A DNA stretch of 64,000 nucleotides, taken from assembly GCA_964493415.1 (NCBI GenBank), contig CAZBND010000002.1, positions 97,678 to 161,677 of the forward strand, read 5' to 3'. Shown here one piece after another: positions 46,272 to 64,000 of this stretch. Under the pieces are notes generated by a model, which saw only the letters and a program-made list of their open reading frames with translations, searched no databases and was not told the DNA's origin. This DNA comes from an uncultured Planctomycetota bacterium. GTDB lineage: Bacteria > Planctomycetota > DG-23 > CAZBND01. Made by a program: the position numbers and the translations under genes. Each line of letters begins with the position of its first letter. The stretch's first letter is position 1.

Positions 46272-47702
46272 TCACAACTGCCGTCGTGCGTGGACGTGCG
46301 CTTCGTCCGTTCCCACGTCTTCAAGGAACTTGACATACGTCTTATGAAGTCGCCTCGCCGCGTCCGTGTTCTTCGACAACACATTGAGGCTCTGGCGTGG
46401 ATCTTTGCGAATGTCATACAACTCTGGACTCGCTTCCCCGGGCTTCGCTATCTCCATGCGCCGTGCCCTGCTGTCGACCGCCGCCGTCTCCGCCATGCAC
46501 AGCTCCTCTCCGGCCTTACCCCCGTATATCAACGTCCACTCCGATGTCGATATCGTGCTCCGCACGAAGGGATTCGGCCCATGGGTGATGCAGGGAGACG
46601 ACACCGCGAAGCCCCTCACCGCTCGCTTCTCGCCCTTCAACACCGGCACCAATGAGGTGCCGTGGATCTCCGGAGGCTTTCTGATGCCGGCAAGCTCCAG
46701 CAGCGTCGGCGCGATATCCCATGGCTGCGCAAACCCCTTCACCCTTCGCCCGCCAGACTTCCCCGGCAATGACATAATCAGCGGGATGTCTGCCACCTCA
46801 CGGTACAGCGGCTCATACCTCATCCGCCCCTTGGCTATCCGAAGCTTCCCTATCATGCCGTGTTCGCCGTGGTAGAACCCGTGATCCGTGGTGAATATCA
46901 CCAGCGTGTTTTCAAAGAGCCCCAGGTCCTCTATCTTCTCCAGCAGCGACCCCACCCACCTGTCCACCAGACTCACCTCTCCGGCGTACAGCGCCCGCAC
47001 GTGCGCAAGCTCCTTTTTGGTCAAGTAGTCCGCGTCGCCGTAAATGGGATAGATAACCTCCTCGCCTTCGTATCCCTTCTCGTACAGTTCGAGGTAGTGC
47101 TTAGGCGGATCCCACGGTTCGTGCGGATCGAACGTGTCCACATAGAGGAAAAAGCTGTCCCGCTTGTAGTTCCGTTCCAGCCATCTCTTCGCTTCCCGCA
47201 TCGTTTGTGCGACGAAGTAATCCTCCTCGTACGCCCGATCTGAGACGTTGCGCAGATATTGCCCGACCACCCTTTCACCCGACCGCAGTTTCTCCGGCTT
47301 GCACGGAAACCTCACCTCTTCTGGATCCGTACGCAGGCGGTCGTTCTCCTGGCCCCGGATCCACTGCCACCCGTCAAACCCTCTGTCGAAGTTGTACCCC
47401 TGCTGGAGGATGTGCGGCGTGTCCGCCACCATCATGCTCGTGTATCCCTTCTCACGGAGCATCTCCGGCAGCACCACCTCATCACCTTGCAGCCTCCCCC
47501 AGTCCGTGTACGTGAAACTCGCTTTTCCTGTCAGAGTGTCACGCCGGTTGGGAACCGTCGGGAAAGACCCCGCATACGCCCCGTCGAACACCACGCTTCG
47601 TTTCGCAAATCTGTCCAGGTGCGGGGTCGAGATCCGCTTGTTTCCGTAGCAGCCAAGGTGGTCCTTTCTGAAAGTGTCCGCTATTATCAGAATGAAGTTC
47701 AT
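46272..47702 (-). CDS. sulfatase-like hydrolase with Thr at the nucleophile position
   Basis: ADTFRKDH, SFPTVPNRRDTLTG, FDPHEPWD, TTDHG. Confidence 0.85.
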   Translation of the reverse strand: MNFILIIADTFRKDHLGCYGNKRISTPHLDRFAKRSVVFDGAYAGSFPTVPNRRDTLTGKASFTYTDWGRLQGDEVVLPEMLREKGYTSMMVADTPHILQQGYNFDRGFDGWQWIRGQENDRLRTDPEEVRFPCKPEKLRSGERVVGQYLRNVSDRAYEEDYFVAQTMREAKRWLERNYKRDSFFLYVDTFDPHEPWDPPKHYLELYEKGYEGEEVIYPIYGDADYLTKKELAHVRALYAGEVSLVDRWVGSLLEKIEDLGLFENTLVIFTTDHGFYHGEHGMIGKLRIAKGRMRYEPLYREVADIPLIMSLPGKSGGRRVKGFAQPWDIAPTLLELAGIRKPPEIHGTSLVPVLKGEKRAVRGFAVSSPCITHGPNPFVRSTISTSEWTLIYGGKAGEELCMAETAAVDSRARRMEIAKPGEASPELYDIRKDPRQSLNVLSKNTDAARRLHKTYVKFLEDVGTDEAHVHARRQL

Positions 47703-49846: not shown

Positions 49847-51253
49847 TTGAACGTCGTCTTCGTAATGATCGACACTCTGAGGGCCGACTACTGCGGTTGC
49901 TATGGCAGCTCGTGGGTCAAAACCCCCAACATCGACGCCTTCGCCCGCGAGAGCGTCGTCTTCGACCGCGCCTACCCCGAAAGCTGCCCCACGCTGCCCG
50001 TTCGACGCAGCGTCTTTTCGATGACCCGCTGCTTTCCCTTCGTCGACTGGCACACGCCCAAAGGCGCCTATCCTGTGATTCCAGGCTGGCAGGGACTTCG
50101 GGAAGAGGATGTGACTTTTCCCGAGTTGATGACCTTCGCCGGCTACCGCACCGCCATGTTCGCCGACACTTACCACATGGCGAAGCCGGGCATGAACTTC
50201 CATCGCTTCTTCAGCGTCTTCCGATGGATTCGCGGACAGGAAGCCGACAGATACGGCTACGGAGAGCTCCCTGCCGATTGCACGGTCGAAAAGTATATGC
50301 GTCCTGACCATCCCGCCGAGTCTGCCGAGCGCAAGAAAGACGCGATCAAGAACTACCTCCGCAACAATGGCGACCGCCGCACCGAAGAGGATTATTTCGC
50401 GCCCAAAGTCTTCGGACAGGCGATCCACTTCCTCGAAAACGAATACAACCGTAGCCCCTTCCTTCTCTACATCGATTCATTCGACCCCCACGAGCCCTGG
50501 GACCCGCCTCGCTGGTATCTCGATATGTACGACCCCGACTACAGGGGGACCGAGCTCATCTGGCACAACACCCCCGACTCTTCCATATACACGGAAGCTG
50601 AGGTTCGCCACATAAGATCCCTTTACGCCGCCGAAGTGACCATGGTCGACACTTGGTTCGGCAAGCTCATGGATAAGGTGAGGCAGCTTGGCATCCTCGA
50701 CGAGACCCTTGTGATCTTCATGGCCGACCACGGTACGGAGCTCGCCGAGCACGGAAGGATCGGCAAGAGCGCCGCGCCCTACCAGCACAACGTCCGGCTT
50801 CCCGCCATGATCCGTTTCCCCGACGGAACCGCCGCCGGAAAGCGCATCGACTCCCTCGTGATGAACTACGATTTCAGCCACACAATGCTCTCCTGGCTGG
50901 GCATCGACGCTCCCGACGGTGTCGATTCGGTCGACCTCATGCCTCTGATCAAGGGCGAGACCGACGAGCTCAGAGATCACGTCATCAACGCGTGGGGCCC
51001 AAGCGTCGGCGTCATCGAGGGGCCGTGGAGCCTCAACTGCACCGATCAGTTCGAGCCCAGCACGCTCTTCAACTTGGCCGACGACCCCACCGAGCAGTCT
51101 GACCTCAAAGCAAAAGCCCCCGACAAGGTCAAGCAGCTTACACGCCGCCTCGAAGAGCTTTACGAGGACCGTGGGCTCGAGAACTACTCCCTCGCGAAGC
51201 GACAGCGAGAGGTCGTCGCCCAGTCATCTCCGAGGAAGACAGTCGTGCTTTGA
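49847..51253 (+). CDS. sulfatase-like hydrolase with Thr at the nucleophile position
   Basis: IDTLRAD, ESCPTLPVRRS, FDPHEPWD, MADHG. Confidence 0.85.
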   Translation: MNVVFVMIDTLRADYCGCYGSSWVKTPNIDAFARESVVFDRAYPESCPTLPVRRSVFSMTRCFPFVDWHTPKGAYPVIPGWQGLREEDVTFPELMTFAGYRTAMFADTYHMAKPGMNFHRFFSVFRWIRGQEADRYGYGELPADCTVEKYMRPDHPAESAERKKDAIKNYLRNNGDRRTEEDYFAPKVFGQAIHFLENEYNRSPFLLYIDSFDPHEPWDPPRWYLDMYDPDYRGTELIWHNTPDSSIYTEAEVRHIRSLYAAEVTMVDTWFGKLMDKVRQLGILDETLVIFMADHGTELAEHGRIGKSAAPYQHNVRLPAMIRFPDGTAAGKRIDSLVMNYDFSHTMLSWLGIDAPDGVDSVDLMPLIKGETDELRDHVINAWGPSVGVIEGPWSLNCTDQFEPSTLFNLADDPTEQSDLKAKAPDKVKQLTRRLEELYEDRGLENYSLAKRQREVVAQSSPRKTVVL

Positions 51254-55690: not shown

Positions 55691-56890
55691 TCACTCACCT
55701 AGACAGCGTCCGCGCAGCTCGCCCAGATTCACGACCTCCCCACTGTTCATTGACATGTTCGCCCCCAGCGCCGCCATGGCGCTTTCGAACCCTTCCTCAG
55801 CTCCCGCAGCCGGCTTCGTTCCATTCACAATGTGCGATATGAAGTCCCGCCAGGCGTTCTGGTCCGCCCCCGCATGCCCGCCGCCGTAGCTCTCCACCAT
55901 TATGACCTCCTCCTCGCTGCGGCCCGGCCTCGTCAACGCAATTCGACCTCTCCCGAAGTCTCCCGTCAGTTGCCCCTTCGTCCCGCTGACGAAGCACGTG
56001 CGCGTCTCTCGCGGCGAGAAAAGTGTCACCGAGAACGCCGCTCTCAGACAATTCTCGTATTCGATGATCGCCGTCTGATTGTCCGCTATATCCTTCTTCG
56101 CATTGTAAACGCACAAGTCCGCCTCTCTCTCATCCAACTCCTCCCGCTCCTCAGGAGTCATAAGCACGAAAGCGTCTCGCGCATCAAACCGGAAATCGCA
56201 CTTCTCGTCGCAGTCACGGCACAGGCGCGGCAGCCTCGGATTCGGGCGGAAGTGGCTGGCCCCGCCGAACGACGCCACCTTTGAAGCGCGGCTACCGCTC
56301 AGCCAGTTCAGAATATCCAGATCGTGGCAGCACTTCGTCAACATCAGTCCGCCGCTCTTCTCGCTCGAACGATGCCACCGCCTTGCGTAGCTCGCCCCGT
56401 GCCGGTACCCCACCAGCTCCTTCCCCTCTATCAGGACTACCTGTCCCAAACCTCCCGAACGGATCATCTCGTTCAGCTTAACGTAAAACGGTGCGTACCT
56501 CAGCACATACCCGAGCTGGAACACCTTCCCGTATCCTTTCGCCTGACGCGCAATCCGTCCGCAGGCTTCCAGCGTCGTTGCCATCGGCTTTTCGAGGAAT
56601 ATGTGCTTGCCGGCTTCCATCGCCGGAATGACGACCTCCTCGTGCGCGTGGTCCGGCGTCGCAATTACCACCGCATCAACCTCCGGATCATCGAGCACAC
56701 GCCGATAGTCCGTTTCCTGTGCCGTTCCCTTCGCACCCAGCATCCGCGCCACCGAAGCCACCCGCCTCTCGTCCGTGTCGCAAAGCTTCACGAGGCGCGC
56801 ACCCGCATTCTCGCCCGTCAGGAACCGCCCGAACGCGAATCCCCGCTGCCCCGTTCCTATGATCGCAACCCCAACGTCTTTGCCGGTCAT
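55691..56890 (-). CDS. Gfo/Idh/MocA family oxidoreductase
   Basis: IIGTGQRG, IATPDHAH, LEKPM, GGLMLTKCCHDLD; start ATG 56890. Confidence 0.92.
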   Translation of the reverse strand: MTGKDVGVAIIGTGQRGFAFGRFLTGENAGARLVKLCDTDERRVASVARMLGAKGTAQETDYRRVLDDPEVDAVVIATPDHAHEEVVIPAMEAGKHIFLEKPMATTLEACGRIARQAKGYGKVFQLGYVLRYAPFYVKLNEMIRSGGLGQVVLIEGKELVGYRHGASYARRWHRSSEKSGGLMLTKCCHDLDILNWLSGSRASKVASFGGASHFRPNPRLPRLCRDCDEKCDFRFDARDAFVLMTPEEREELDEREADLCVYNAKKDIADNQTAIIEYENCLRAAFSVTLFSPRETRTCFVSGTKGQLTGDFGRGRIALTRPGRSEEEVIMVESYGGGHAGADQNAWRDFISHIVNGTKPAAGAEEGFESAMAALGANMSMNSGEVVNLGELRGRCLGE

Positions 56891-57027
56891 GACGCCTTCC
56901 TTCCTGAAACAGCTTCCGCGGAAACACCATGATACCATTCGCCGTCAGCACGGTCGAGAAGTCCATCTCCCCCTCGGCGCATAGTGGCCCTGCAACATAT
57001 CAGGCAGCGATACGTCAGCCGCTCCGG

Positions 57028-57504: not shown

Positions 57505-58782
57505 ATGAAACGATTCCTGCCCGTCGCCGTGGTCATCGCTGTGCTCCTCATGATTCTTGTGGGTCTGGCCGCATATCATTACGGCGTGAACGCCGGCACG
57601 CCCGCCGCGTCCGAACAGATTCGTCCCCTCGAAGAGCGGCTTGCCGAGGCTGAGTCCCGCATCGCTCTGCTTTCCCAGCAGAATGAACGCATCAAAGCCG
57701 AGCTCGAGACTGAGAAGTCTCGATCTGACTCGAAGACCCTGACTATAGTTGACCTCCAGCGGCAGTTGGCTGACATCATGAAGGACCTGGTCGACGCTCC
57801 TGACGTTCCCGCCATCTCATTCGATGAAAAGGTCAGGCTTCTGATCGCCAAGCTCGCCGAGGACGACGCATGGTACTACCGCGATAAGCTCATCGAAATG
57901 GGCGAAGAAGTCATCCCCTTCATCCTGGCGCGGCTCGAAGAGCCTGACGTCACCGAGGACGAAAGCCTCATGCTCTATCAAATACTAGCCCGCTTCGGCG
58001 ACCCCGAGCTTGTTCCCTGGTTCATAGCGGGACTCGTTTCGGACAGCCAGCGCGTCAGAAGGGAATGCCACCGCGCTCTCATGCGCTTCACCTATCAGAC
58101 CCTCCCGGCCGACTACGACGAATGGGCCCTTTGGTATGCCACCAACGCAGGCCTTGACCCCGATCAATGGCACGACTCCGCGATCAACAACGCTCTTACC
58201 GCGCTCGCCTCTGGCAACGCTCGGGAACGCTCCGACGGCCTCATGTTTCTCTTCCGGCGGCTGATGGAGGGGGATGATGAGCTGGCTGCCGACCCCAGAG
58301 TTCTCTCGGCGCTTGCTGATCTGGCCCAGAGCGAATCGCCTTCCATTCGGCGCAGCGCATTGATGATGCTGGCCCGAGTTCTCCCTGACGACCAGGTTCT
58401 CGTGTACGTGACACCTCTCCTTGATTCCTCCGATAACCCCACTGACCGTGCCGCCGCCGTCATGGCTCTGGGAAGGCCCGGCCTTACCGGGGCAATTCCC
58501 ACCCTCGAGCCACTCCTCAGCGACCCCGATTCCTCCGTCAAGCGGGCCGCCTTTTTCAGCATCGCCCGCGTCGGCGGTGAGGAGGCAAAGCAGACGCTTT
58601 CCGCCGCGCTCCAGCAGGCCAAAGATGCCGGAGAGGACACCCGCGGGTTGGAGTTCATCCTCAACGCCATGAACGAAGGCCGCCTCCAGCGCTATCCTTT
58701 CGCCTTCGGAGCAGGTCCCGGAGGCGGACGGCGGAGTGGCCGACCTTCGGGAATCTGGGGATTCGAAACCGGACGTCGTTGA
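57505..58782 (+). CDS. membrane-anchored coiled-coil plus HEAT-repeat protein
   Basis: N-terminal TM, heptad stretch, HEAT repeats (SPSIRRSAL, DPDSSVKRAA), Gly/Arg tail. Confidence 0.8.
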   Translation: MKRFLPVAVVIAVLLMILVGLAAYHYGVNAGTPAASEQIRPLEERLAEAESRIALLSQQNERIKAELETEKSRSDSKTLTIVDLQRQLADIMKDLVDAPDVPAISFDEKVRLLIAKLAEDDAWYYRDKLIEMGEEVIPFILARLEEPDVTEDESLMLYQILARFGDPELVPWFIAGLVSDSQRVRRECHRALMRFTYQTLPADYDEWALWYATNAGLDPDQWHDSAINNALTALASGNARERSDGLMFLFRRLMEGDDELAADPRVLSALADLAQSESPSIRRSALMMLARVLPDDQVLVYVTPLLDSSDNPTDRAAAVMALGRPGLTGAIPTLEPLLSDPDSSVKRAAFFSIARVGGEEAKQTLSAALQQAKDAGEDTRGLEFILNAMNEGRLQRYPFAFGAGPGGGRRSGRPSGIWGFETGRR

Positions 58783-60007: not shown

Positions 60008-61336
60008 TCACAACCGGCTTGCGGCAAGTGACGCGAGTTCGCTCCGCTCGCTTGTCACCAACGTCACATGCCCCACCAGCGGCTCCCCCTTCAGGCGGTC
60101 TGCCGCATAGGTCAGCCCGTTGCTCGTGGCGTCCAGGTAGGGATTGTCTATCTGATACGGGTCGCCCGTCAGCACCACCTTCGTTCCGTCGCCCGCTCTG
60201 CTTATGACCGTCTTCACCTCGTGCGGCGTCAGGTTCTGCGCCTCGTCCACCAGCATGAATTGATCCGGGATGCTCCTGCCCCGAATGTACGTCAGCGCCT
60301 CCAGCGCCAGCTTATCCGTCTCGAAAAGCCTCTCCAGCGGGCTCCCCCGATCATTTTCCTTCCCGTTCTTCCCCTTTCTCTCTTCCCGAGGCGTACCGTG
60401 CAAGATCAGATCGAGGTTGTCGAATATCGGCTCCATCCAGTGCTCCAGCTTCTCCTCTTTCGAACCGGGCAGGTAGCCTATGTCGCTTCCCATCGGAATT
60501 ATCGGCCTAGACACCAGCACCCTCTTGTACGCTCGCTCTTTCAGGCACTTGTGTAGAGCGCACGCCAGCGCAATCAGCGTCTTCCCTGTTCCCGCTTGCC
60601 CTACCAGCGTGACCAGTCTCACCTCCTCCTTCAGCAAAAGCTCCATTGCCATTGTCTGCTGTATGTTCCTTGGGCGGATCCCGTACACGGCGCCCCCTTC
60701 GTACTCTAACGCCACCGCGCGTCCGTTCCCCTCGTACCTGACCATCGTCTCCTTGCCCGCGCCCCCGCTGTCTTTCGCCAGTATGAACTGATTCGGAAGG
60801 AACTCTCCCTCCAATGTCACCTCGCCCTTCTCCTTCAATTCCGAAATCTGGCTACCGGAGAACTCCGCCTCCGACCAGCCCGAATACAGCCGCTCGAAAT
60901 CGACCTTCTGCTTCTCGAAATCCACCGCCTTTATCCCCAGCGAATCGGCCCTTATCCGCGCGTTGATGTCTTTCGACACGAACACCGCCGTTTGCCCCGA
61001 ATTCATCAGCTCGTACGCGACCGAGATTATCCTGTTGTCCGCCGTGTCCGCATGGAGCATCGCTGGCATGCCTTCCTCCGACGGAAAGGCGACACGGAGC
61101 GTTCCTCCCGTCTCGTCTATCGGAACCCCCTCCTTTAGATGTCCCTTCGACCTCAGCTCGTCCATCTTTCTGATCGCCGCCCGCGCATTCCTACCCAGCT
61201 CGTTGTTCTCTTTCTTGAACGTGTCCATCTCTTCCAGCACGTCGATCGGGATTACCACCTCGTTGTCTGCGAATGACGTCAACGCGGCAGCGTTATGGAG
61301 TAGCACGTTCGTGTCAAGGACGAAACTCTTCTTCAT
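60008..61336 (-). CDS. PIN-PhoH fusion (PhoH2/YlaK type)
   Basis: FVLDTNVLLH PIN motif, ADNRI, SKDINAR, GQAGTGKT, YIRGRSI, DEAQNLT; start ATG 61336. Confidence 0.93.
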   Translation of the reverse strand: MKKSFVLDTNVLLHNAAALTSFADNEVVIPIDVLEEMDTFKKENNELGRNARAAIRKMDELRSKGHLKEGVPIDETGGTLRVAFPSEEGMPAMLHADTADNRIISVAYELMNSGQTAVFVSKDINARIRADSLGIKAVDFEKQKVDFERLYSGWSEAEFSGSQISELKEKGEVTLEGEFLPNQFILAKDSGGAGKETMVRYEGNGRAVALEYEGGAVYGIRPRNIQQTMAMELLLKEEVRLVTLVGQAGTGKTLIALACALHKCLKERAYKRVLVSRPIIPMGSDIGYLPGSKEEKLEHWMEPIFDNLDLILHGTPREERKGKNGKENDRGSPLERLFETDKLALEALTYIRGRSIPDQFMLVDEAQNLTPHEVKTVISRAGDGTKVVLTGDPYQIDNPYLDATSNGLTYAADRLKGEPLVGHVTLVTSERSELASLAASRL

Positions 61337-61539
61337 CTCGCACCCCTTCTTGGTCACAAGCATTTCAGACCCATCTGAACCACCGATTCTAATCTCCATC
61401 CGTGCCCTCCACAAGCGACTGCCCGCAGGCGTCTTCGCACACGTCCCGGCCCTGGGGCATTCGTTAGCCCGGTCGCGCACGCCTTGGAAGGGGAGGGGCT
61501 TCGTCATCGTCGCAGCCCCCGTCTTTTTTCAAAATTCCC

Positions 61540-61568
61540 TTGACGAAGCCGGTGTCACCTTTTACACT
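61540..61568 (+). promoter_or_regulatory. sigma70 promoter of the Rrf2-cysE-DUF39 operon
   Basis: TTGACG, 17 nt spacer, TACACT. Confidence 0.65.
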
Positions 61569-61602
61569 TTTTCTATAGCAATGGTGGGAAAGGACGGAGC
61601 AG

Positions 61603-62046
61603 TTGAAGATCTCTACGCGGGCTAGGTATGGCGTGAGGGCTCTCATTGACATGGCCGGACAAGATTCTGACCAGCCAATCCAGCTCAAGGACATAGCTTG
61701 GCGACAGGAGATTTCTGTGAAGTATCTCGAGCAGATTTTCGCGCAGCTGCGTACCTCGGGCCTCGTTCGCGGCGTCCGGGGACCTCGCGGCGGCTATCTC
61801 CTGTCAAAATCTCCCGAATCCATGAGCATCTGCGAAGTCGTCGAAGCTCTTGATGGTTCGCTTTCGCTCGTCGACTGCGTTGACGACCCTTCCGCCTGCC
61901 ATAGGTCCCAAGGGTGTCCGTCCCGCAGGGTTTGGGCTGAGGTCAGTGGCGCGTTGCGCGACAACCTCGCTTCGATCTCGGTTGCCGACATGGGCATGCC
62001 CCCGGCCAAGGGCCGGGCACCGCGTCGAAAGCGCGCTTCGACGTAA
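61603..62046 (+). CDS. Rrf2 family transcriptional regulator (IscR/CymR-like, three Cys)
   Basis: MKISTRARYGVRAL, SVKYLEQIF, VRGPRGGYLL, CVDDPSACHRSQGC. Confidence 0.93.
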   Translation: MKISTRARYGVRALIDMAGQDSDQPIQLKDIAWRQEISVKYLEQIFAQLRTSGLVRGVRGPRGGYLLSKSPESMSICEVVEALDGSLSLVDCVDDPSACHRSQGCPSRRVWAEVSGALRDNLASISVADMGMPPAKGRAPRRKRAST

Positions 62047-62255
62047 CCATTCCCCGGGCCTTTGGCCTGGACCTCCTTCGCGATCCCTGGTGGAAATCGA
62101 AGGGTGGTCGTGTTGCTCCGGTTGCGCGCATGGAGACTAACTGTGCACCGCTTGTCCCCCTTGCGGATCAAATCTGGTACACGAACTTTCGCTGGCGAGG
62201 TGTTTGTTGGTACGGTATCCTGATAAAGGAATAACGTAGAAAGGGGCGTGCTTCC

Positions 62256-62909
62256 CTGTTCAAAAGGATCTCCGAGGACGTTAGGAATGTCTTTGCTCGT
62301 GACCCCGCGGCTAAGTCGGTGCTCGAGGTGCTCACATGCTATCCTGGGCTCCATGCCATCTGGATTCATAGAGTAGCCCACTTGCTCTGGCGTGCTCGCC
62401 TTAGGTTGCTCGCCAGGTTCATCTCGCACCTGGGACGCTTTCTGACCGGCATCGAGATTCATCCGGGGGCTAAAATTGGCCGGCGTGTCTTTATCGACCA
62501 CGGCGCCGGCGTCGTTATCGGAGAGACTTCAGAGATTGGCGACGACGTCGTCCTCTATCAGGGCGTTGTCCTCGGAGGCACGTCCATGGAGAAGAAGAAA
62601 CGGCACCCCACAATCGGTCACAACGTTGTCGTCGGCGCAGGAGCCATTCTCCTTGGCGCTGTTGATATCGCCGATGGCGCAAAGGTCGGCGCTGGCTCCG
62701 TCGTCGTGCACTCGGTGCCCGTCGGAACTACCGTCGTCGGCATACCTGCAAGACCGGTGGAGACGCGCACAAAGCTCGACCTCGACCTCGACCACGGCAA
62801 GCTTCCCGACCCTATCGCCGAGGCAATAAGGACAGTCCTCGACGAGCAGCAAAAGCTGCGCGATCGCATAGCTCAGCTCGAACGGATAATCGGGCAAAAA
62901 GGCGGATAG
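62256..62909 (+). CDS. cysE: serine O-acetyltransferase
   Basis: [39 protein letters not shown]; conserved N-terminus extends to CTG 62256. Confidence 0.95.
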
Positions 62910-62953
62910 CGCTTGTCGCCTCATGCCTCTTGGTATGCTGGAAGGAGGTGGTG

Positions 62954-63049
62954 ATGATGTTATGGATTATGCGTAGCCCGCATCGGCCGCAGCGTACAAG
63001 TGTGTGTTCACATCACCGCTTTCTCTACCAGGAGGAAACAGATGCCTAA
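62954..63049 (+). other. candidate leader peptide (31 aa, MMLWIM...) in a structured 5' leader
   Basis: AAGGAGGTG SD 5 nt before ATGATG; TAA overlaps the DUF39 ATG; 14 bp stem 62943-62956 with 63011-63024. Confidence 0.45.
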
Positions 63050-64000
63050 GACCATAAGCGAGATAAACGAACGAATCCGAAAGCGTCAGGCCGTCGTCGT
63101 CACAGCCGAAGAAATCATCGACATCGTCGATGAGAAGGGCATAGACGCCGCCGCCAAAGAGGTCGATGTCGTCACCACGGGCACCTTCGGACCCATGTGT
63201 TCCTCCGGTGCCTACTTCAACATCGGCCACTCCAAGCCCAGGATCAAGCTGGGCGGCGGGCATGTGCGCCTTAACGCCGTCCCGGCCTACGCCGGTTTCG
63301 CAGCCGTCGACCTCTACGTCGGCGCAACCGCCATCCCCGATGACGACCCACGCAACAAGGTGTTCCCAGGGGAGTTCAGCTACGGAGGCGGCCACGTGAT
63401 TCAGGACCTCGTTGGAGGCAAGGACATCGTCCTCGAAGCTACCGCCTACGGCACCGACTGCTATCCGCGGAAAAGGCTTCGAACGCTCATCAGCATCCGC
63501 GACCTCAATGAGGCCGTGCTCTTCAACCCGAGGAATGTCTACCAAAACTACAACATCGCCGTCAACCTCTCCGACAAGGTGATCTACACCTACATGGGGG
63601 CTCTCAAGCCCAACCTCGGCAACGCCAACTACTGCAGCGCCGGACAGCTCTCCCCCCTTCTCAACGACCCTCACTACAAGACCATAGGGATCGGCACCCG
63701 GATGTTTCTTGGCGGAGGGGTCGGTTACGTCGCTTGGCAGGGAACCCAGCACAACCCCACCGTCAAGCGCAAGCCCAACGGCGTTCCCGAAGCACCCGCG
63801 GGCACGCTCGCGCTCATCGGGGACCTCAAGGGAATGAGCCCGGACTGGCTCGTCGGCACCAGCTTCCGCGGTTACGGTGTTACCCTCACCGTCGGCGTAG
63901 GCATTCCCATCCCCATCCTGGACGAAACCATCTGCAAGTTCACTTCCGTCCGTGATGAGGAGCTTTCAGCCAAGATCGTCGACTACAGCAACGCCTATCC
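63042..64000 (+). CDS. homocysteine biosynthesis protein (DUF39, MA1821/MJ0100-like), truncated at right edge
   Basis: Absent from the ORF track; hand translation MPKTISEINERIRKRQAVVVTAEE..DVVTTGTFGPMCSSGA..YGGGHVIQDL..YGTDCYPR..PRNVYQNYN..LSPLLNDP. Confidence 0.9.
   Translation, partial: MPKTISEINERIRKRQAVVVTAEEIIDIVDEKGIDAAAKEVDVVTTGTFGPMCSSGAYFNIGHSKPRIKLGGGHVRLNAVPAYAGFAAVDLYVGATAIPDDDPRNKVFPGEFSYGGGHVIQDLVGGKDIVLEATAYGTDCYPRKRLRTLISIRDLNEAVLFNPRNVYQNYNIAVNLSDKVIYTYMGALKPNLGNANYCSAGQLSPLLNDPHYKTIGIGTRMFLGGGVGYVAWQGTQHNPTVKRKPNGVPEAPAGTLALIGDLKGMSPDWLVGTSFRGYGVTLTVGVGIPIPILDETICKFTSVRDEELSAKIVDYSNAY

Follow-up and report, generated by a model that had tools for sequence, protein, structure and literature searches.

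Among the closest described systems, the translational attenuators of the ermC and cat type (ErmCL, ErmBL, CatA86L) have, as is generally known, a short leader open reading frame (ORF) with its own Shine–Dalgarno (SD) sequence, exert their control at translation without a terminator, and sequester the regulated ribosome-binding site (RBS) in a hairpin by pairing it with an arm in or near the leader, from which an early-stalled ribosome would free it. In the equally well-known rtpLP–rtpA (anti-TRAP) system of Bacillus subtilis, a leader with hungry codons acts on translation initiation of the next gene and not on a terminator, and the position of the ribosome on the leader sets access to the downstream SD. 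Here we describe a leader that, by analogy, appears to operate most like these two systems and that precedes hcyBio, a homocysteine biosynthesis gene of the DUF39 family, in a 64,000-nt stretch of contig CAZBND010000002.1 from an uncultured Planctomycetota bacterium (the whole stretch is called the window below). It occupies the 134-nt spacer between cysE (stop at 62909) and hcyBio (ATG at 63042), and an upstream ORF (uORF) with its own RBS stands directly before the regulated cistron, as in ermC/cat and rtpLP. Because it is present in about one-third of related loci across phyla, this leader is very probably a real, apparently undescribed translational control element for methionine synthesis. 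The ermC/cat leaders answer to a ribosome-bound antibiotic inducer and control resistance genes, whereas here the gene is biosynthetic, the conserved part is a five-codon core and the stalling is a prediction; no sequence similarity to them was found. The rtpLP leader uses three consecutive Trp codons and a steric block at its stop codon, whereas the present leader has one conserved Met codon and involves RNA pairing; the two are not homologous, and rtpLP is nevertheless the nearest functional analogue of the Met-tRNA sensing proposed below.

Classical attenuators (trpL, hisL, thrL, leuL, pheL and the uORF of Corynebacterium ilvB, PMC10272879) place a short ORF with codons for the product before an amino-acid gene. 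A short ORF with its own SD before a biosynthetic operon is found here as well, whereas there is no terminator or antiterminator and no family-wide run of regulatory codons, and residues without a regulatory role are conserved. The uORF of Streptococcus fthC (PMC11109978) is a computational candidate in which Met supply, through tRNA-fMet, was suggested to set the speed of uORF translation and so attenuate the main ORF; it belongs to another genus and gene, has another architecture (three hairpins including a terminator), bears no sequence relation to the present leader and is itself a candidate only. Translational control by a leader ORF is therefore of a known kind, and the hcyBio leader itself is apparently undescribed, as a preliminary description of this spacer had proposed: neither Rfam 15, Pfam and NCBIfam nor a literature search returned a match, and the literature search turned up neither a leader described before DUF39/HcyBio nor a leader peptide for methionine.

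The DUF39/HcyBio route is the source of homocysteine, and hence of methionine and S-adenosylmethionine (SAM), for many anaerobes, and its users include Dehalococcoidia, sulfate reducers, Omnitrophota and organisms with methanogen-like metabolisms; we know of essentially no account of its regulation. Bacteria are understood to control methionine through SAM riboswitches, T-boxes and protein regulators. If the leader is a conserved ribosome-based switch of hcyBio, it would add a missing member to the known amino-acid attenuators, because to our knowledge no methionine leader peptide has been described. It would also provide a compact and portable regulatory part, with a sensor of ~45 nt, and an annotation marker for the Met regulon in uncultured phyla. 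Its odd features (the invariant Met at codon 5, the near-invariant Trp, the wobble A with an out-of-frame AUG and the hairpin at a fixed distance) make it a useful test case for control of the ribosome by very short nascent chains and by start-proximal mRNA context.

To survey the leader, 175 hcyBio loci were gathered, consisting of 80 genomic and 80 metagenomic loci at 71–81% protein identity and 15 closer ones at 81–100%, and the 164 with enough upstream sequence were used for counts with a profile of the core. Besides the window, 59 of these 164 loci carry the core leader, showing that the element first noticed in a single spacer recurs before other DUF39 genes. In all carriers the core lies 60–150 nt before hcyBio and on the sense strand only, and no other convincing copy was present in the surveyed loci (about 1.9 Mb searched) or in the 64-kb window. 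The strict 9-mer TGGAYNATG occurred at 1.08/kb upstream of hcyBio and at 0.027/kb elsewhere, a 39-fold enrichment, and a covariance model (R1) recovered 48 distinct loci, plus the window at 46.6 bits. The element was confirmed as real, specific to hcyBio leaders and conserved across phyla, with labelled carriers in Omnitrophota, Planctomycetota, Spirochaetota, Desulfobacteria/Deltaproteobacteria (Desulfobacterota), Dehalococcoidia and Candidatus Ratteibacteria, that is, in at least 5–6 phyla by record labels. The gene directly upstream in carrier loci was cysK in 23 of 36 and cysE in 8 of 36, and at most motif-less loci hcyBio follows a nifU-like, cysK or thi4-like gene by <40 nt. Relatives of the window at 86–90% protein identity retain the entire leader, and in two low-GC relatives at 81% identity just the 5′ part remains, the 8-codon uORFs reading MLWIMFRP* and MLWIMHRP*. 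A pattern scan of viral contigs returned four matches, all attributable to chance, within coding sequence and without the hairpin.

The anatomy of the core was read from 51 distinct leaders, using alignments of 47 leaders for the core and 50 for the hairpin. Its order is an extended SD, 6 nt, AUG, NUA, UGG, a hydrophobic codon, AUG, 4 nt and a hairpin. The family SD is GGAGGUGRU or GCAGGUG, complementary to the 3′ end of 16S rRNA, and AGGTG precedes TGG by a constant 12 nt in almost every one of the 47 aligned leaders. At the start position (−6 relative to TGG) there is AUG in 32 leaders and GUG in 6 (38/51), and most leaders with neither offer an AUG or GUG in frame, a few codons further upstream. 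NYA fills codon 2 in 50/51 leaders (UUA 20, CUA 16, GUA 5, AUA 5, CCA 3, GCA 1; UCG in 1); codon 3 is UGG in 47, UGU in 3 and UGC in 1, and never UGA; codon 4 varies at all three bases and yet encodes Ile, Thr, Leu or Val in 49/51 (Ile 31, Thr 8, Leu 7, Val 3, Gln 1, Ser 1); and codon 5 is AUG in 51/51. The conserved residues M-[LVI]-W-[ITLV]-M thus stand with some nucleotide variation, and nucleotide-level constraints are present too. The preliminary description had remarked on three Met among the first six codons; this holds for the window, where Met codons are 1, 2 and 6 of the uORF, but across the family only the start and the single elongator Met of codon 5 are conserved, and the set of three is specific to this genome. 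The out-of-frame triplet spanning codons 2 and 3 reads ATG in 50 of the 51 leaders and GTG in the other one. In the window this triplet combines the A of codon 2 with the TG of TGG and opens the short frame ATG GAT TAT GCG TAG (MDYA-stop, 62962–62976) that had already been pointed out; we rejected this frame as a real ORF, as it often has just four codons and its third codon is NAU with an invariant third base, which is not coding-like.

The hairpin of the family has the consensus GCCC-GNRA-GGGC, begins 4 nt after codon 5 and is 98% paired in the 50 aligned leaders, the alignment being fitted to the model. Double changes occur in three of its four pairs, including GCUCC/GGAGC (L095), a flipped GGC/GCC (L135) and U-G intermediates, and the loops are not conserved across the family. 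The uORFs are 8 to 50 codons long; some stop within the hairpin loop or the spacer, others at the start of hcyBio or within that gene (range −120 to +65), and the peptide is not conserved beyond residue 5–8. Since the length of the uORF varies and its later peptide is unconserved, the sensor is taken to be the first five codons. RNAalifold on the unbiased 47-sequence alignment gave 0 pairs over the region from the SD to the codon-5 AUG; therefore the unit resembles a ribosome-loading site with a five-codon frame and a hairpin at a fixed distance, unlike an aptamer. The trio of Met codons in the window, its 14-bp helix and its overlap of stop and start are lineage-specific additions to this five-codon core.

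In the window all elements of the leader lie on the forward strand. The perfect SD of the preliminary description is present as the strong core AAGGAGGTG at 62942–62950, within an extended SD, AAGGAGGTGGTG (62942–62953), that is complementary to the 16S 3′ end over ~9–10 nt and also forms the 5′ arm of the inner helix. The uORF runs from the ATG at 62954 to the TAA at 63047–63049 with 31 sense codons, as had been described (MMLWIMRSPHRPQRTSVCSHHRFLYQEETDA, beginning ATG ATG TTA TGG ATT ATG); the ORF list gives this frame as well, from an upstream TTG. The family core ATG TTA TGG ATT ATG (M-L-W-I-M) occupies 62957–62971 (nhmmer E = 3.8e-10), and codon 5 of the core is thus codon 6 of the uORF. 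The overlap with hcyBio was real in that the two ORFs share 8 nt (ATGCCTAA), but the TAA lies 3 nt beyond the hcyBio ATG (63042–63044) and not on it. The local hairpin is at the family position, 62976–62987, and is weakened here (GCC-CGCATC-GGC, pairing 62976–62978 with 62985–62987); the alternative is the inner hairpin ATGCG/CGCAT noticed earlier, at 62969–62973/62979–62983.

The helix proposed between 62943–62956 and 63011–63024 proved exact, with 14 bp of which three are G-U, and is specific to a GC-rich clade of five members. In the minimum free energy (MFE) fold, the uORF SD and start (62941–62956) pair with CATCACCGCTTTCTCT (63011–63026), called anti-SD1 below. The suggested extension by CTGG/CCAG (62938–62941/63028–63031) is complementary, but the MFE fold prefers a longer outer helix of CCUCUUGGU at 62926–62934 with ACCAGGAGG at 63027–63035, which buries the whole SD region of hcyBio (SD2). 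This 5′ arm (anti-SD2, CCTCTTGGT) pairs with SD2 in both the MFE and centroid folds, and therefore a single long hairpin is predicted to hide the uORF RBS together with the hcyBio SD. The segment 62922–63048 folds at −47.9 kcal/mol compared with −37.7 ± 3.7 for shuffled sequences (z = −2.73), and 4 of 200 shuffles were as stable. An otherwise identical metagenome contig (L163) carries a G-to-A change at the equivalent of 62933, so that its anti-SD2 arm reads CCTCTTAGT; because one G-C pair of the outer helix is lost without compensation, this is a natural variant of the switch.

The clade of the window (window, L165, L168, L170 and L171) keeps the long hairpin with both arms conserved, while the stretch of ~25 nt that separates the local hairpin from the 3′ arm varies. 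The outer helix 62926–62934/63027–63035 is retained in five related leaders, with two compensated pairs at its inner end. In the four relatives the uORF stays open to the hcyBio start despite indels; its TAA is again 3 nt past the hcyBio ATG in L165, L168 and L170, and L171 has UGAUG. This coupling geometry of overlapping stop and start is a feature of the clade and not of the family. Other lineages show other pairings. In L077, L099 and L137 the segment from the codon-5 AUG to GCCC (codons 5–8) pairs over 11–13 bp with the SD and AUG of hcyBio, with compensatory changes among the three (UGUGUUG/CAACACA, UGUGUUG/UGACACA and UGCGUUG/UGACGCA), in L104 an anti-SD follows codon 5 directly, and L041 and L101 have pairing similar to that of these four. 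Sequestration of the hcyBio RBS of the kind found in translational attenuators is accordingly predicted for the clade of the window and for L041, L077, L099, L104 and L137, and is absent from about 40% of leaders. We also compared duplexes of each leader segment with its own partner and with partners from other loci. Own duplexes were more stable both between codons 4–8 and the hcyBio RBS (p = 0.0016) and between the uORF RBS and the leader downstream of it (p = 0.0022), in both cases with the signal coming from subsets of leaders, and the test supports the anti-SD1 pairing. A second conserved stretch, AUAUUGGAUGAGGAAU, was observed 15–35 nt past the local hairpin in four low-GC leaders (L081, L088, L098 and L124); it resembles the core (UAUGGAU) and holds an SD-like GAGGA.

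When a 30-nt ribosome footprint was slid along each leader in simulation and the cost of opening the hcyBio RBS was computed, the footprint opened this RBS most, by mean and by median, with codon 4 in the P site and the codon-5 AUG in the A site. In the window the gain was 2–4 kcal/mol up to the codon-4 position and zero just past it, and in L077 it peaked at 10.5 kcal/mol with the P site on codon 4.

The leader is intercistronic, because cysE (62262–62909, serine acetyltransferase; Hexapep match and N-terminal alignment with relatives) lies directly upstream. The first gene of the putative operon encodes an Rrf2-family regulator (61603–62046; Pfam Rrf2, E = 2e-38), and the sole promoter-like site found near the leader by a promoter scan is at this gene (61540–61568). 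A scan of the forward strand over 61400–63300 gave no terminator-like site, and hence none between cysE and hcyBio. hcyBio itself (63042–64000; DUF39, PF01837, E = 2.5e-134), encoding the sulfur-incorporation enzyme of homocysteine biosynthesis, runs past the end of the window, and its complete protein has 403 aa; contigs with an identical HcyBio protein carry hcyBio, NIL-ferredoxin, ThiF and class-V aminotransferase (Aminotran_5) genes in this order. Given the missing terminator and this downstream order, the leader is probably inside an rrf2-cysE-hcyBio transcript that continues into these genes.

We tentatively favour, at somewhat less than even confidence, the reading that the spacer is a translated regulatory leader ORF which gates hcyBio by translational attenuation, with scarcity of Met-tRNA stalling the ribosome at codon 5. 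A ribosome would load on the very strong SD (62942–62953), initiate at the AUG at 62954 or 62957, and four codons on would meet the invariant Met codon (62969–62971) with the small hairpin immediately ahead. If Met-tRNA(Met) is scarce, it would dwell there with a footprint of ~62951–62981 over the 5′ arm of the long hairpin, and because this arm is then covered, the anti-SD1 arm (63011–63026) and the adjacent hcyBio SD (63027–63035) would be freed and hcyBio translated. With Met plentiful, the ribosome would run through and terminate at the TAA (63047–63049), perhaps with one coupled re-initiation, after which the hairpin would re-form and mask both ribosome-binding sites. Other lineages may use the same five-codon sensor with different wiring, codons 5–8 pairing directly with the SD and AUG of hcyBio. 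We infer that the uORF is translated, that ribosomes pause at codon 5, that this pausing turns hcyBio on, and that the supply of Met-tRNA(Met) read at this invariant codon is the simplest signal; it has the correct sign for a gene of the methionine pathway, because low Met would turn hcyBio on, and it agrees with the masked segments lying just beyond codon 5. Met sensing by the leader is plausible. Translation of the uORF is favoured by the constant spacing of its SD, by AUG or GUG at the start position in 38/51 leaders, by the AUG of codon 5 in all 51, by a codon 3 that is never UGA and by codons 2 and 4 that remain hydrophobic through nucleotide changes, and the position of maximal RBS opening in the footprint simulation also speaks for the model. 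Such gating would act on hcyBio independently of the upstream cysteine genes and would probably extend to the NIL-ferredoxin, ThiF and desulfurase genes behind it. The rrf2-cysE-hcyBio unit is presumably under sulfur or cysteine control through the Rrf2 regulator, and the placement of the leader between cysK or cysE and hcyBio suggests a Met-specific translational valve inside the transcription unit; with cysK or cysE upstream and no terminator in the spacer, a Met-specific translational switch in a Cys/Hcy operon makes physiological sense.

Several observations weigh against this reading. Opening the hcyBio RBS costs 9.8 kcal/mol compared with 9.1 ± 3.2 for 27 other starts in the window, an ordinary value for this GC-rich genome, and hence thermodynamic masking alone is no evidence. 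About 40% of leaders have no predicted masking of the hcyBio RBS, and the footprint gain at codon 4 is small over the family (mean 1.2, median 0.5 kcal/mol). Around 10 of the 51 leaders, mostly from Dehalococcoidia, have no AUG or GUG at the usual start position. The family conserves a single elongator Met codon, whereas classical hungry-codon leaders carry runs, and Met starvation limits initiation as well. At the wobble position of codon 2, 50/51 leaders have A and one has G, a nucleotide-level constraint that lies outside the model and that selection on the peptide does not explain, and the near-invariant Trp, replaced only by Cys, and the hydrophobic residues are superfluous for a pure hungry-codon sensor. 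In leaders whose uORF stops at the hcyBio start, translation that does not stall might also activate hcyBio through coupling, which blurs the on/off logic. Moreover, the matching sequencing runs are DNA metagenomes only (sediment, seawater and microbial mat), and no RNA runs were found among them. The codon-2 wobble A, the missing starts, the conserved Trp, the unmasked leaders and the coupling keep three alternatives alive.

The conserved residues themselves are the starting point of the first alternative, in which the nascent pentapeptide fMet-Leu-Trp-Ile-Met acts as the sensor in the peptidyl-transferase centre or upper tunnel of a ribosome on the same leader ORF, triggered by SAM, Met, homocysteine or the modification state of ribosome or tRNA, with RBS unmasking, loss of coupling or mRNA decay as output. 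Trp in 47/51 leaders and hydrophobic positions 2 and 4 maintained through AUC, CUC, GUC, UUG and ACA changes amount to a residue conservation across phyla that a hungry-codon sensor does not need, and the hairpin is placed exactly where the helicase of a ribosome with codon 5 in its A site meets it. Several arrest peptides depend critically on a Trp, and ribosomes can be arrested even by leaders as short as MsrDL (MYLIFM). TnaC, SpeFL and the SAM-responsive MTO1 region of Arabidopsis CGS1 are likewise conserved nascent peptides with a critical Trp that regulate a downstream gene or their host gene, and CGS1, which governs the committed first step of Met synthesis, sits at the same physiological node as the present leader. 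However, those peptides have 24–90 residues and fill the exit tunnel, whereas only five residues are conserved here, without sequence similarity to them, and four to five residues are very short for a metabolite pocket. If arrest unmasks the RBS, arrest induced by the end product would have the wrong sign for a biosynthetic gene; Cys replaces Trp in four leaders; the wobble A of codon 2 is not explained either; and the leader peptides resemble no known leader peptide in NCBIfam or Pfam. We regard arrest by the pentapeptide as unlikely, though the least so of the alternatives. The more specific proposal, that it lets the ribosome read methionine or SAM status through metabolite binding or through SAM- or sulfur-dependent modification of tRNA or rRNA, appears slightly less probable again. 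In its modification-sensing variant the interchange of Trp and Cys would be explained, because ms2i6A37 sits on the tRNAs reading UGG and UGY. If true, the leader would be a bacterial counterpart of the SAM-responsive arrest of plant CGS1 and the shortest metabolite-responsive arrest peptide known, in at least five phyla of mostly uncultured anaerobes.

The constraints that peptide selection leaves aside, namely the wobble A of codon 2 in 50/51 leaders and the out-of-frame AUG or GUG in 51/51, exceed coding needs and could instead reflect an RNA-level element that works independently of uORF translation, either a small riboswitch or a site for a protein, a small RNA (sRNA) or the 30S subunit on AUG-NU-AUG-G-NNN-AUG with the hairpin. 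The changes of UGG to UGU or UGC, the ~10 leaders without a well-placed in-frame start, and the GNRA loops and compensatory changes of the hairpin agree with this. Yet no conserved structure involves the core in the RNAalifold result, no pseudoknot is apparent because the hairpin loops are unconserved, and ~15 nt of single strand with a 4-bp hairpin is very little RNA from which to build a selective aptamer. The spacing from SD to AUG is also exactly that of a ribosomal site, and codon 4 stays hydrophobic though all three of its bases vary. SAM riboswitches and Met T-boxes occupy the same niche in leaders of the methionine pathway, and SAM-II, III, V and VI share the output of SD sequestration; the present leader differs in having no covariance-model match and no aptamer-like fold, its conserved part being an SD, a start and a mini-ORF. 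At gathering score Rfam 15 gave only three tRNAs in the whole window, with no match to SAM-I to SAM-VI, SAM/SAH, SAH (S-adenosylhomocysteine) or T-box families. For 62700–63300 at E ≤ 10 only ROSE_2 (16.7 bits vs 65) and Atu_L6 (12.2 bits vs 100) appeared, so the statement of the preliminary description that the spacer fits neither SAM-I/II/III, SAH nor T-box consensus was borne out even at this loose threshold. Across 20 carrier and 20 non-carrier loci no riboswitch or leader family, SAM riboswitches included, was found upstream of hcyBio, and all gathering-score matches over these loci and the window were tRNAs apart from one unrelated thiamine pyrophosphate (TPP) riboswitch. The leader is outside all riboswitch, T-box and leader families of Rfam and all leader-peptide families of NCBIfam and Pfam. 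Hence, of the two mechanisms first offered, attenuator or riboswitch, a translational attenuator fits best and a riboswitch is disfavoured by a core without conserved secondary structure; we consider an RNA-level element of any of these kinds improbable.

Some other identities were rejected on sequence grounds. The absence of a GGA site in 12/51 leaders counts against a CsrA-type target: in a CsrA/RsmA leader the second site would be UGGAY, and GGA is replaced by UGGCUC, UGGGUC, UGUAUC and others while UG and AUG are invariant. A T-box-like reading of UGGN/AUG fails on the variable N and the missing Stem I, a sigma-70 promoter on weak −10 and −35 elements, a dnaX-type −1 frameshift cassette on the intervening NUA UGG AYN AUG and on the absence of a slippery heptamer in the 51 leaders, and an intrinsic terminator on the conserved hairpin, behind which no lineage has a U-run. 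The SAM-I riboswitch of D. vulgaris does not belong to its DUF39 gene: according to a preprint on this species it precedes DVU1170, DUF39 being only a predicted sRNA target, and the preprint notes that DUF39 is required for homocysteine formation in D. alaskensis. The TPP riboswitch mentioned above (59.9 bits, L027:270–380, Omnitrophota) is ~2.6 kb upstream of hcyBio and unrelated to the leader.

A third alternative dispenses with sensing altogether. The SD and mini-ORF could be a constitutive device that recruits ribosomes (standby or coupling), unwinds structure or, like a STAB-SD with a hairpin, stabilizes the mRNA. In 31/36 loci the element lies between cistrons, following cysK or cysE, its SD is unusually long, the uORF in the clade of the window ends at the hcyBio start in a geometry suited to coupling, and many leaders have no RBS masking that would need relief. 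A generic role of this kind, however, needs neither the invariant Met at codon 5, the near-invariant Trp and the fixed hairpin distance, nor an exclusive tie to one gene family across phyla, and no such device precedes the many hcyBio genes that follow cysK or nifU-like genes by <40 nt. We therefore hold it to be about as doubtful as the RNA-level element. Finally, a functionless chance ORF and hairpin in a GC-rich spacer, for which one could cite the ease with which ORFs open at 60% GC, the ordinary RBS opening energy and a hairpin z-score of just −2.7, is effectively refuted by the profile, covariance-model and 9-mer enrichment results, with 51 distinct leaders from several phyla and a wide GC range tied to one gene family and one strand at 39-fold enrichment, and its probability is negligible.

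Some features of annotation and neighbourhood were also recorded. In a relative of the clade (L165:2255–2299), the public HcyBio call (418 aa) is 15 residues too long and starts within the leader, which we judged to be a gene-calling artefact; such overlong calls hide the leader in annotations, because the start is placed inside it. At six motif-less Dehalococcoidia loci (L063, L065, L117, L139, L150 and L156) the last 45 nt before hcyBio share TTGACA-N15-17-TATTAT, followed ~12 nt on by the hcyBio ATG without an SD. This looks like a conserved promoter for a nearly leaderless hcyBio mRNA, an alternative mode of expression. The cysE gene has no ATG, GTG or TTG at the expected start (62235–62330 of the window): the start region of its relatives (LFKRISEDV..., with TTG, GTG or ATG) aligns with a CTG at ~62262 preceded by AAAGGGG, and the first canonical start, GTG at 62319, would cost ~19 conserved N-terminal residues. 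The CTG sequence is identical in three independent assemblies (L161, L162 and L164), and since these agree and no canonical start exists, either a rare CTG start or an N-terminal truncation is indicated. Close relatives have cysK between rrf2 and cysE (L168:1239–3197 and L170:2273–3199), L168 with an additional ThiI-like gene, and the 215-nt rrf2–cysE spacer of the window (62047–62261) contains no detectable remnant of cysK. Further from the leader, the window encodes two sulfatases, a HEAT-repeat protein and a GFO/IDH/MocA oxidoreductase (46272–47702, reverse; 49847–51253, forward; 57505–58782, forward; 55691–56938, reverse), and the neighbourhood has 60% GC and a gene content typical of sediment bacteria of the PVC group. 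A gene for a PIN_4 and PhoH-like ATPase protein (60008–61507, reverse strand) is divergent from rrf2 and is kept as its neighbour in L161, L168 and L170.

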